Below, one piece after another: positions 1 through 7,182 of a stretch of DNA of 12,440 nt (position 1 is its first letter; each line of letters opens with the position of its first letter). Both the position numbers and the translations under genes were made by a program. The stretch comes from a virus (taxonomy: Duplodnaviria > Heunggongvirae > Uroviricota > Caudoviricetes). The notes beneath the pieces are model-generated. The model saw nothing but the letters and a program-made list of their open reading frames with translations, did not search any database and was not told the origin of the DNA. The stretch lies in the IMG/VR virus record IMGVR_UViG_2698536348_000004; one strand, 5' to 3'.

Positions 1-68
1 TGTGTCAGCTTTTCCGCAAGGTCTGACGGCGACGCCGCCCTGACAACATCATAATGTTTAATCGACAT
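1..68 (-). CDS. Hypothetical protein, N-terminal fragment only (gene runs off the window start); first residues MSIKHYDVVRAASPSDLAEKLT
   Basis: ATG at 66-68 on the minus strand with a GGGAGA Shine-Dalgarno about 7 nt upstream; frame stays open to the window edge. Absent from the ORF track because it is truncated. Competes with overlapping track ORFs 54..287(+) and 117..311(-). Confidence 0.3.
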   Translation of the reverse strand, partial: MSIKHYDVVRAASPSDLAEKLT

Positions 69-611
69 CGAATTTCTCCCGTGTACAGGAACAGAGTTAA
101 AAAGCCGGAACCGGAATCAAATTACAGGATGGCCATCTGCCAGTGGCAGGTCATAAAAAAAAGGCCGCGCCATGCGCAGCCAGAACTCACAAGGAAAATG
201 ATAGAAGGAAATAACATTAGTGATGTACGCATGGCGCCTCCCGCTAAGTTCTGCAATGATCAAACAGAACTCGCTACGTGCCCTTAAAACTCGATCATTT
301 AGCCCCTCCAAGGAGGATTCACCATGCGGTTGATTTTTTAATAAACAGTAAACAAAAAAGTCAAGGATTATTCATTCTGTTTTTTCATCATCGGCCACAG
401 CAATACCACAATGCCGCAGACCAGAGCGCCATCAGTCAGTACCAACATTATCCTGCTGGTGAAATCCATCATCACCATCACTAAAAGCAGGATCACAACA
501 GCAAGCAGACACAGTTTATAAAACAATGTTCAGAAAACGCATTCAGCATGCCTAAGGTTCTATTCCTACGAATAGCCAACTTGCAACTTAAAATATTATT
601 TATGCAGCCAA

Positions 612-1370
612 TTAAATTCTGGTCCTTACAATATCAACCTGAAGATTCTTATCTTGTGCTGATTGATAAATGACAAACCTTTTACTACCTGCATTGAAAG
701 AAGTAGACAAAACCAGACAATTATCATAACGAGCAAGAACATAATACCAACCATCATTATAATTAATCATTTCATATTCTTTCTTAAACTGTGGTTTGTA
801 ATATCCTGTCAGAAATGAAAAAAGCCAGAAATATGCCACAAAAGCAATCATCACAATCTCAAAAAAATGTTTTTTTATAAATGGCTTATCATAGAAGCAT
901 GATACCGATAAAAATCGCCCATAAGATCTTATCGAAATTGTAACCGCCAGCGCAATCGCTGCTGACAGTAGCAAAAGAGGTACCTGAATCTTCTGTCTCA
1001 ATATAGAAAACTCAATAATTGCCGGCACAAACAATAATTCCACAGCAAAATAAAGGCGAAATACATTTAGCTCTTGCATAGAATGTTTTCTTTTCACTGC
1101 GAAAAAGAATACAACACCAATACCCCAACCGATAAGAAATATAGCAATGACGATAACTGCAAAAAATAAACTTCTGGCAACATCATCAACACCTGCACCT
1201 ACAATCCACCATGGGAAGCCGTAGTAAAAAGAAGTACCCCATCCATAGAAATAAGCACTCCCCCATCCAAGGCATCCCATGTAGGCAATAAAAAGTGAAG
1301 AACTCCTGAGCAGCGCACCATCCTTCATAACCACCCCAATACAAGATGATAACATTGGCTTACAACTCAT
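612..1370 (-). CDS. Polytopic inner-membrane protein (about five hydrophobic helices, rich in W/Y/F/G, roughly 60-aa soluble C-terminal tail); function unknown; moron-like
   Basis: 252-aa ORF, AT-rich, first gene downstream of the pR'-like promoter. Five long hydrophobic stretches in the translation. No clear SD at 1370; an internal ATG at 1328 (MKDGALL...) is an alternative start. Confidence 0.65.
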   Translation of the reverse strand: MSCKPMLSSCIGVVMKDGALLRSSSLFIAYMGCLGWGSAYFYGWGTSFYYGFPWWIVGAGVDDVARSLFFAVIVIAIFLIGWGIGVVFFFAVKRKHSMQELNVFRLYFAVELLFVPAIIEFSILRQKIQVPLLLLSAAIALAVTISIRSYGRFLSVSCFYDKPFIKKHFFEIVMIAFVAYFWLFSFLTGYYKPQFKKEYEMINYNDGWYYVLARYDNCLVLSTSFNAGSKRFVIYQSAQDKNLQVDIVRTRI

Positions 1371-1536
1371 AACAAAAGCAATTCAATGCCGTCAAGAGGT
1401 TACAGGCTAAAAAAACTCTATTACATTGCAGTCAGCATGTTTACTACACAAATACAATTCAGAGCATAAAAACTACTCGGCGGCAGGTTATTGAGACTCA
1501 TCAATGACATGTAAAAAACGCCCATTATTGATGTCA

Positions 1537-1607: not shown

Positions 1608-2231
1608 CTAACGTGTGATCGCATTCAAAATGTTGTCTGCGATTGACTCTTCCTTGTGGCATTGCACAACCAGAGCGTCATACAGCGGCTTAACAGTGCG
1701 TGACCAGGTGGGTTGGGTAAGGTTTGGGATTAGCATCGTCACAGCGCGATATGCGGCGCTTGCTGGCATTCTTGAATAACCGACGCCTTTACATCTTCCG
1801 CACTCTTTCTCAGCAACTATCCCCCACTGCTCTGTTTTGGCTATATCAACCGCACGGCCTGTACCGTGGCAATCTCTGCATCTTGCGCCCGGCGTAGCAG
1901 CACTACGGCAATAATCCGCATAAGCGAATGTTGCGAGCACTTGCAGTACCTTTGCCTTAGTATTTCCTTCGAGCTTTGCCACACCACGGTATTTCCCCGA
2001 TACCTTGTGTGCAAATTGCATCAGATAGTTGATAGCCTTTTGTTTGTCGTTCTGGCTGAGTTCATGCTTACCGCAGAATGCAGCCATTCCGAATCCGGCT
2101 TGTGATTGCGCCATCCCCATAGCAGCCATCACATCAGTACCGGAAAGAGAGTCAGAAGCCGTAGCCCGTGGTGAGTCGCTCATCATCGGGCTTTTTGGCG
2201 AATGAAATTTAGCTACGCTTTCGAGTCTCAT
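1608..2231 (-). CDS. Q: Late-gene antiterminator Q (lambda Q type)
   Basis: 207 aa; starts MRLESVAKFHSPKSPMMSDSPR; Cys-rich zinc-binding segment CRDCHGTGRAV...CGRCKGVG. Near-identical to lambda Q as recalled. Start overlaps the ninH stop. Confidence 0.9.
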   Translation of the reverse strand: MRLESVAKFHSPKSPMMSDSPRATASDSLSGTDVMAAMGMAQSQAGFGMAAFCGKHELSQNDKQKAINYLMQFAHKVSGKYRGVAKLEGNTKAKVLQVLATFAYADYCRSAATPGARCRDCHGTGRAVDIAKTEQWGIVAEKECGRCKGVGYSRMPASAAYRAVTMLIPNLTQPTWSRTVKPLYDALVVQCHKEESIADNILNAITR

Positions 2232-6193: not shown

Positions 6194-6484
6194 TCATCTT
6201 TTAACTCCATATACCGCCAATACCCGTTTCATCGCGGCACTCTGGCAACACTCCTTAAAAATCAGGTTCGTGCTCATCTTTCCTTCCCGTTCTTCCTTGG
6301 TAGCAAACCGGTAATACACCGTTCGCCAGACCTTACCTTCGATAACCAGAAGACCTGCCCGTGCCATTTTAGCCGCGGCCTGATTTATGCTGGTTACTGT
6401 TGCGCCTGTTAACGCGGCAACGTCCGGCGCACAGAAGCTATTATGCGTCCCCAGGTAATGAATAATTGCCTCTTTGCCCGTCAT
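6194..6484 (-). CDS. ren: Ren (protects against Rex exclusion in lambda)
   Basis: 96 aa; MTGKEAIIHYLGTHNSFCAPDVAALTGATVTSINQAAAKMARAG matches lambda Ren as recalled; ATGA overlap with the P stop, as in lambda. Confidence 0.85.
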   Translation of the reverse strand: MTGKEAIIHYLGTHNSFCAPDVAALTGATVTSINQAAAKMARAGLLVIEGKVWRTVYYRFATKEEREGKMSTNLIFKECCQSAAMKRVLAVYGVKR

Positions 6485-7182
6485 ACACTTGCTCCTTTCA
6501 GTCCGAACTTAGCTTTAATTTCTGCGATCTTCGCCAGCGCCTGAACACGATTTAGAGGTCTGCCGCCCATGACAGGAAGTTGTTTTACTGGTTCAGGTAT
6601 CGTCTCACCACGGTTAATTCGCGCTGTCATACAGGTCAGTTCATCGGCAGCCTTACGGCGTAATTCCGCATCAGTAAGCGCATTGGCCCGCATGTTCTGA
6701 TACAGGTTGGTGACCAGCCAGTAGTGCGCGTTTGATTTCCACGGATAAGACTCCGCATCCGGATACAGGCCACGCTTCCGGCAATACTCGTAAACCATAT
6801 CAACCAGCTCGCTGACGTTTGGCAGTCCGGCGATAACGGATGCTTCTTCCCGGCACCATGCAACAAACTGCCCGGGAGATGGCAGAAATGGTCGATTCTG
6901 CCGACGGGCTACGCGCATTCCTGCGTTAACCTGTTCCATTGTGGTGATCCCGTTTTCCCGGAAAGCCAGAACCCACTGGCGGCGGATTTCGTTCAGTTCG
7001 TTCTGGTCACGGTTAGCCAGGCTCGCCGGGAAAGTTGCCAGTAACTGGCTGAACACACCGTTGATGATCTGCGCTACCTGCTGTACCTGCGGCTTTTCGT
7101 CGTACTGTTCCGGCATGTTGTTGGCGATCCGACGCATCTGCTCACGGTCAAAATTAACCATCTGTGCGGCGATGTTTTTCAT
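6481..7182 (-). CDS. P: Replication protein P (DnaB helicase loader)
   Basis: 233 aa; MKNIAAQMVNFDREQMRRIANNMPEQYDEKPQVQQVAQIING... essentially the lambda P sequence as recalled; ATGA overlap with O. Confidence 0.95.
   Translation of the reverse strand: MKNIAAQMVNFDREQMRRIANNMPEQYDEKPQVQQVAQIINGVFSQLLATFPASLANRDQNELNEIRRQWVLAFRENGITTMEQVNAGMRVARRQNRPFLPSPGQFVAWCREEASVIAGLPNVSELVDMVYEYCRKRGLYPDAESYPWKSNAHYWLVTNLYQNMRANALTDAELRRKAADELTCMTARINRGETIPEPVKQLPVMGGRPLNRVQALAKIAEIKAKFGLKGASV

Follow-up and report, generated by a model that had tools for sequence, protein, structure and literature searches.

At the left end of the window, the 12,440-nucleotide stretch of DNA analysed here, two open reading frames occupy opposite strands of the same sequence. 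This raises the question of which of them is a gene, and what its product might be. A first-pass annotation had proposed that the plus-strand frame is the antisense of a small hydrophobic peptide gene on the minus strand. The ORF listing contains the minus-strand frame as described: read from a TTG codon it encodes a protein of 52 aa, MFYKLCLLAVVILLLVMVMMDFTSRIMLVLTDGALVCGIVVLLWPMMKKQNE, and read from the ATG at position 478 it gives the 36-aa peptide quoted in that annotation. Two details had to be corrected. The right boundary had been placed at 523, which is 3 nt short, as the TTG occupies 526..524 and the feature ends at 526; and the plus-strand frame ends in five histidines (HHHHH) rather than six. 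The frames 278..484(+) and 368..526(-) sit in exactly complementary register. The length of the minus-strand frame is not significant on its own, since the first 2 kb of the window contain 23 ORFs of at least 30 aa. Its significance comes from family matches in Pfam and PHROG.

The window derives from a lambdoid E. coli prophage, with the early-right and late-control genes on the minus strand and a cI-like repressor and a eukaryote-like kinase on the plus strand (Table 1). A RefSeq locus 100% identical to the window, NZ_CP148578.1, extends beyond the left edge of the window. Past that edge it carries, on the same strand, genes for a SASA/NanS-type esterase, a class II holin, a YdfR-family protein and a lysozyme. 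Every gene of this locus from Q through the lysis cassette lies on one strand. This co-directional arrangement places the small ORF in the late-transcript moron slot, the interval that separates Q from the lysis genes and houses accessory genes in lambdoid phages.

Table 1. Features of the window, with positions counted from its first nucleotide
Feature	Position	Strand	Remarks
Orphan tciB, DUF3927-family ORF	368..526	minus	52 codons and a TAA stop
TTG start codon	524..526	minus	Sole start giving the full-length protein; without a Shine-Dalgarno (SD) sequence
Antisense ORF, 68 aa	278..484	plus	Ends in HHHHH; read as not a gene
STnc100/PasD-family sRNA-like element	152..357	minus	Rfam RF02076, 37.7 bits, E 4.5e-6
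Intrinsic terminator	153..181	minus	8-bp G+C-rich stem (181..163) and T-run; the sole one in the region
Recombination junction	515..530	minus	Homology with tciA-linked copies from codon 4 (AAA CTG, 517..512)
Multi-pass membrane protein, 252-aa ORF	612..1370	minus	Pfam PF27470 'TfpB', PHROG 1521
Antiterminator Q	1608..2231	minus	Pfam PF03589, E 1e-57
Replication genes	6481..8117	minus	
NinB, P63C protein, antirepressor, RusA		minus	Among the early-right/late-control genes of the window

The minus-strand protein matches Pfam PF13064 (DUF3927) with 54.2 bits (cutoff 25, E 1.4e-14). The match passes the gathering threshold and aligns residues 7-50 with profile positions 7-49 of 53. It also matches PHROG 1470, 'TciB-like', with an E-value of 1.2e-17. 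An identical protein is present in RefSeq as WP_000499456.1, 'DUF3927 family protein', and CPT_434_69 of phage 434, named 'TciB' (GenBank OL657226.1), is 96% identical to it. NCBIfam has no model for either of the two proteins searched, this one included, and searches of PDB sequences and of PADLOC with the window TciB recovered no match. TciB proteins are about 52-55 aa long, and two hydrophobic segments flank their core, V-D-F-T-S ... D-G-x-L-V. The second of these segments is followed by a basic residue, and the window copy conforms to this pattern. Residues D21, F22, T23, I26, V29, L30, D32, L35, V36, P45 and K48 are invariant in alignments that include TciB of P1, and W44 is invariant as well in the full-length alignment with the P1 protein. 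When 1.84 billion representative proteins were searched with a profile, 138 clusters (at 50% identity) were recovered, nearly all of 45-65 aa. Judged by these profile matches, 368..526(-) truly belongs to the DUF3927/TciB family. The first-pass annotation described the gene as masked, but RefSeq and the phage 434 record both list it, and its family is known from Pfam and PHROGs; it is not new in itself.

The product was expected to be a small, very hydrophobic helical peptide, and the family match, the helical model and the hydropathy profile agree on this. AlphaFold2, run with an 11-sequence alignment, predicts one continuous helix over residues 2-51 (pLDDT 91, pTM 0.49), with no hairpin drawn. 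The hydropathy profile has two maxima with D-F-T-S-R between them, and basic residues are found at both ends of the protein (K4, K48 and K49). A hairpin with an N-in/C-in topology would fit these basic ends; the AlphaFold2 model, though confident, is that of a single straight helix and does not bear on the hairpin. In some DUF3927 variants of Escherichia albertii (P0042, P0063, P0071 and P0030) the second hydrophobic segment is interrupted by one to three tandem 7-aa units, GGWRLEA or CGIVGLWD. The repeats suggest a slippage-prone 21-nt unit that would destroy or diversify the helix.

To decide on the coding strand by the conservation of each frame over homologues, as the first-pass annotation had proposed, we compared codons 4-45 of 20 distinct homologous DNAs. 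These were drawn from 231 loci, for which scans of viral contigs were the main source (the scan of genome contigs gave only 2). The result favours the minus strand. The minus-strand gene frame has the lowest pN/pS ratio, 0.47, with pairwise dN/dS between 0.19 and 0.45, and it alone is open in 20/20 sequences. The other five frames have pN/pS ratios of 0.63-1.49 or contain stop codons. The antisense frame with a ratio of 0.63 shares its wobble positions with the gene frame, and its low ratio is an expected by-product of that. The plus-strand frame in register, 278..484, has a ratio of 0.87 and is broken by stops in the P1-like homologues and in the homologue L229. Comparison of the homologous sequences thus indicates that the minus-strand frame is the coding one and that 278..484(+) is its antisense shadow, as had been supposed from the single sequence.

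The reverse assignment, with 278..484(+) as the real gene and the minus-strand frame as the artefact, could draw on the greater length of the plus-strand frame and on its being open in both E. coli prophage lineages. However, besides its higher pN/pS ratio and its stops in distant homologues, the plus-strand frame has no Pfam match and is called by no annotation pipeline (RefSeq or the phage 434 record). Its 5' third overlaps the sRNA region, where indels separate the lineages. We regard this assignment as hardly conceivable.

The relatives of the window copy occur in a fixed genetic context. Outside the window lineage, a TciA-like sequence lies directly 5' of tciB in all 146 sampled loci (146/146). 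This TciA is full-length and free of stops in about 115 of them; in about 30 it is interrupted by a stop codon or truncated at the N-terminus. Matches of the TciA-like proteins to Pfam TerB (PF05099) have E-values from 1e-16 to 2e-6; the tci names derive from TerB homology. The tciA stop and the tciB start overlap, as GTGA in the E. coli lambdoid prophages and as TGATG in P1. Starts of the GTG type are preceded by a GGAG SD (-6.4 kcal/mol), and the other homologues start with ATG. Phages Evi and LMessi carry a tciA-tciB pair in the interval from Q to the holin gene, and another is present in the N4-like phage vB_SalP_TR2. The N4-like phage Pollock contains a TciB-like sequence detectable by tblastn, and its genome announcement mentions a homologue of P1 TciA (PMC4319500). 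In P1, tciB is followed by tciC, which encodes a 35-aa single-pass peptide. The P1 genes tciA, tciB and tciC were found to be non-essential in a CRISPRi screen (PMC10695390).

The gene tciB is the second of a tciA-tciB(-tciC) module in most lambdoid prophages, in N4-like phages and in P1-like phage-plasmids. There it is translationally coupled to tciA, the gene of a soluble TerB-domain protein. From gene order alone, we infer that TciB is an inner-membrane partner or anchor of TciA, because the coupling is strict in three unrelated phage types. The invariable association with TerB in P1-like, N4-like and lambdoid elements provides a testable hypothesis for DUF3927, namely that TciB is the membrane partner of TciA. 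Fusions between TerB and DUF3927 were sought among the 138 clusters from the 1.84 billion representatives, and none was found. The few long hits proved to be chimeric or frameshifted calls: P0147 joins a histidine-phosphatase N-terminus, junk sequence and TciB, and in P0186 a frameshifted C-terminus of TciA continues into TciB.

TciB of P1 (P1_gp075, 54 aa) is 42% identical to the window protein over the full length, and the two resemble each other in size and in hydrophobic helical character. Both have the core V-D-F-T-S ... S-V-L-x-D-G-x-L-V ... W-P-x-x-K. The genetic setting is different: P1 tciB is coupled to tciA and followed by tciC, whereas the window copy has neither partner, starts at an SD-less TTG and is located in a lambdoid late region.

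The loss of the partner is shared by the whole lineage of the window. In 85/85 loci of this lineage, the window included, tciA is absent, and the tciA-tciB module is thus lacking. The lineage includes phage 434, phage 2B8, CP-933K of EDL933 and Sp3 of Sakai. The place of tciA is taken by the unrelated TfpB-family gene 612..1370(-), and the orphan tciB starts 85 nt 3' of it. The closest tciA-linked relatives are those of the MTV type, a sister lineage of E. coli prophages named here for the TciB N-terminus MTVKL. Ungapped identity between the window copy and MTV-type loci is 0.71-0.75 over codons 4-20 and 0.75-0.87 over codons 21-48, and falls to 0.20-0.22 on the 5' side of codon 4. This collapse of identity places a recombination junction at the very start of the gene. 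Past K48, a 2-nt indel shifts the C-terminal tails of the two lineages into different frames (KKQNE in the window copy, KRNSLHNA in the MTV type); the tail after K48 is therefore not conserved.

The MTV-type protein (sORF XECs205 in Sakai) is 58-60% identical to the window TciB, with 87% DNA identity over codons 21-48. Like the window copy, MTV-type tciB lies between Q and the esterase and lysis genes; it is followed by an STnc100 sRNA, the window copy by an STnc100/PasD-like element. Unlike the window copy, it starts at a GTG that overlaps the tciA stop (GTGA) and has the GGAG SD. Of the 80 MTV-type loci (L087-L166), about 30 contain tciA as a pseudogene, with an internal stop or a lost N-terminus, next to an intact tciB with its SD and GTG; L088 2402..3001 is an example.

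Phage 434 has the same gene order as this locus: Q, a TfpB-like membrane protein, tciB, terminator, SASA esterase and pinholin. A further RefSeq protein, WP_000499454.1, represents the same gene in the same arrangement as WP_000499456.1 and the phage 434 copy. The Q genes themselves differ, being lambda-type in the window and Q82-like in phage 434. This difference shows that the segment is a mobile mosaic block. The orphan arrangement is present in 682/5426 complete E. coli genomes, about 13%, including O157:H7 EDL933 and Sakai, and 670/682 of the copies are at least 99% identical. On these identities, the block that carries the orphan is young and nearly clonal. What is new at this locus is limited to one detail: the widespread copy is an orphan without its TerB partner and without initiation signals.

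The missing initiation signals were already suspected from the sequence, where no convincing SD had been seen. The duplex with the 3' end of 16S rRNA has a free energy of +0.4 kcal/mol for the TTG and +0.6 kcal/mol for the ATG at 478, compared with -5.3 to -11.8 kcal/mol for other genes of the window and -6.4 kcal/mol for the coupled tciB homologues. An in-frame TGA is located two codons 5' of the TTG. The leader 5' of the TTG is rich in A/U, and SD-independent initiation at this codon is thus possible. Recombination at codon 3/4 removed tciA, the SD sequence and the coupled start codon, and the remaining orphan can initiate only at the SD-less TTG. Annotation pipelines call such an orphan, devoid of initiation signals, as a normal gene, which calls for caution with catalogues of small proteins.

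Downstream, the orphan adjoins an sRNA family of current interest, STnc100/PasD. The element in the window begins 11 nt past the tciB stop codon and finishes at the terminator. Its match to RF02076 covers the full model length and keeps several helices and the terminator, with a score of 37.7 bits against a gathering score of 47; the equivalent element behind tciA-linked, MTV-type copies scores 94-105 bits. The phage 434 record annotates a terminator at the same position. PasD is a structural relative of STnc100 according to Zhu, Shabalina and Storz, who also describe the order pasD2, sialate esterase, holin/lysozyme (bioRxiv 10.64898/2026.05.13.724894), and the order at this locus matches it. 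STnc100 copies are expressed in uninduced EDL933 (PMC5331693).

Several minor features accompany the element. A TTGACT-N15-TATTAA motif over the tciB stop codon is conserved in both lineages and may be the promoter of the sRNA. Inside the element, at 284..309(-), a strong SD, GGAGG (309..305), is followed after 6 nt by an ATG (298..296) and a 4-codon ORF, MIEF*. In EDL933, ribosome coverage is high on several STnc100 copies (PMC5331693); binding of ribosomes to SD/ATG sites of this kind might be the cause. Two annotated features, a partial 'hypothetical protein' pseudogene of RefSeq at 45..287(+) and a 62-aa 'putative membrane protein' of the phage 434 record at 117..311(-) (CPT_434_70), are probably spurious, as both span the sRNA and the terminator.

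On the upstream side, RefSeq places the start of the TfpB-family gene at 1355. The length of its homologues, 237-238 aa, makes the ATG at 1328 the probable true start. A promoter-like site, TTGTTA-18-TATCAT with a TG, is found at 1375..1346. Homologues of this protein (45-68% identity) lie beside eltAB, which encodes the heat-labile enterotoxin, on ETEC plasmids and beside lpxR in Citrobacter rodentium, and come after Q in Yersinia prophages. No TciB was found beside the homologues at the eltAB, lpxR and Yersinia Q loci, which rules out an obligate TfpB-TciB pair. Among sequenced phages, a TfpB-like gene occurs only together with orphan tciB.

The small size and hydrophobicity of the peptide had led to its comparison with holins and type I toxins. 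The likeness is of this general kind, and no family match goes with it. As a holin or antiholin, or as a type I toxin held down by an antisense RNA, TciB would be in keeping with its small size, two hydrophobic segments, basic C-terminal tail and position in the phage late region, and a structured sRNA does lie immediately 3' of the gene. Class II holins and pinholins (S21-like) of lambdoid phages are likewise small membrane proteins in which two helices are hydrophobic, and the late transcript encodes them. However, they share no sequence or profile similarity with TciB, and tciB is not beside an endolysin gene. The window TciB has no match to a holin or toxin family in Pfam, PHROGs, NCBIfam or PADLOC, and its alignment by hhalign with the resident class II holin has a probability of 0.1%. 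This holin is the real one of the same prophage, in a lysis cassette about 2.5 kb downstream, and tciB is separated from the holin-YdfR-lysozyme genes by the sRNA, the terminator and a 1.85-kb esterase gene.

The toxin version fares no better. The neighbouring sRNA is not antisense, since it lies on the same strand as tciB and downstream of it. An Rfam-type RNA search recovered no antitoxin RNA family over tciB, and consensus scans, as weak negative evidence, gave no promoter-like site on the plus strand between 250 and 560. The relatives of TciB are operon partners of a TerB protein, not of an antisense RNA. We consider a role as holin, antiholin or type I toxin very unlikely.

Evidence on expression comes from O157:H7 Sakai, in which the orphan ORF is present at 901027-901185 and unannotated. 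Hücker et al. used RNA-seq and RIBOseq to examine every intergenic ORF of 30 aa or more in this strain, permitting TTG and rare start codons (PMC5597208). In their data XECs205, the SD-bearing and tciA-linked TciB paralogue, has an RPKM of 6.5 in the transcriptome and 15.9 in the translatome, with an RCV of 3.01 in LB, and is predicted to be an inner-membrane protein with two TM helices. Among the entries listed there for uninduced Sakai, there is no novel sORF at 900.9-901.3 kb and no MFYKL or LFYKL peptide (PMC5597208). This negative result has only moderate weight, as the cultures were uninduced and the result concerns the listed entries. The phage 434B is viable with its Q-to-holin segment swapped for DLP12 DNA (PMC9119081). 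According to the phage 434 feature table, the replaced segment includes the orphan tciB.

None of the 85 orphan loci has a broken ORF, and the frame is likewise intact in the 682 complete E. coli genomes. Of its polymorphic sites across the 85 loci three are synonymous, and the only other one is the non-synonymous K49E, which lies in the unconserved tail. The ORF is free of indels; its flanks, 200 nt, contain three 1-nt indels. The pattern would fit continued selection, with only 4 polymorphic sites in a nearly clonal lineage. In so young a lineage, the intactness of the ORF counts for little.

Two readings of the orphan have to be weighed here. The late transcript could still yield from it a small inner-membrane protein with an autonomous function, which would act alone or with its TfpB-family neighbour, for example in lysis timing, in superinfection or colicin entry, or on membrane potential. 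The integrity of the ORF and the excess of synonymous changes and flanking indels point this way, as does the moron-slot location of the gene. The MTV-type loci with a pseudogene tciA and an intact tciB suggest that tciB may persist without tciA, and the restriction of phage TfpB-like genes to the company of orphan tciB would suit a joint function. However, the TTG is without an SD and the coupling is gone, TfpB homologues do without TciB at eltAB, lpxR and the Yersinia Q loci, and tciB of P1 is non-essential. The orphan is also absent from the listed translated intergenic sORFs of Sakai, among which its paralogue is reported. We regard an autonomous function as possible, though rather doubtful.

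The reading that we favour over it, and hold to be somewhat probable, is that the window copy is an orphaned, dispensable passenger: a copy of the small helical membrane protein that would be the partner of TerB-like TciA. The orphan still has an intact coding sequence and would be transcribed within the Q-dependent late (moron) transcript, but would probably be translated weakly or not at all, and would have no role in lysis.

A more far-reaching scenario can also be drawn. TciA-TciB would be a widespread module in which the DUF3927 peptide tethers a TerB protein to the inner membrane, where it senses or counters insults to the envelope, such as colicins, tellurite-type stress or superinfection. 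The 434-type orphan would then have been co-opted to act by itself or jointly with its TfpB-family neighbour, with translation starting at the SD-less TTG only under the flood of Q-dependent late transcription. We consider this scenario unlikely.

Elsewhere in the window, at 8891..11569(+), the cI-like repressor (S24 peptidase and HTH) is followed downstream by a DUF3024 protein at 9659..10000, a 153-aa ORF that matches no family and a eukaryote-type protein kinase of 348 aa (Pfam Pkinase, E 2e-46). This arrangement of repressor and kinase presumably resembles that of the repressor-linked kinase (Stk) of phage 933W.
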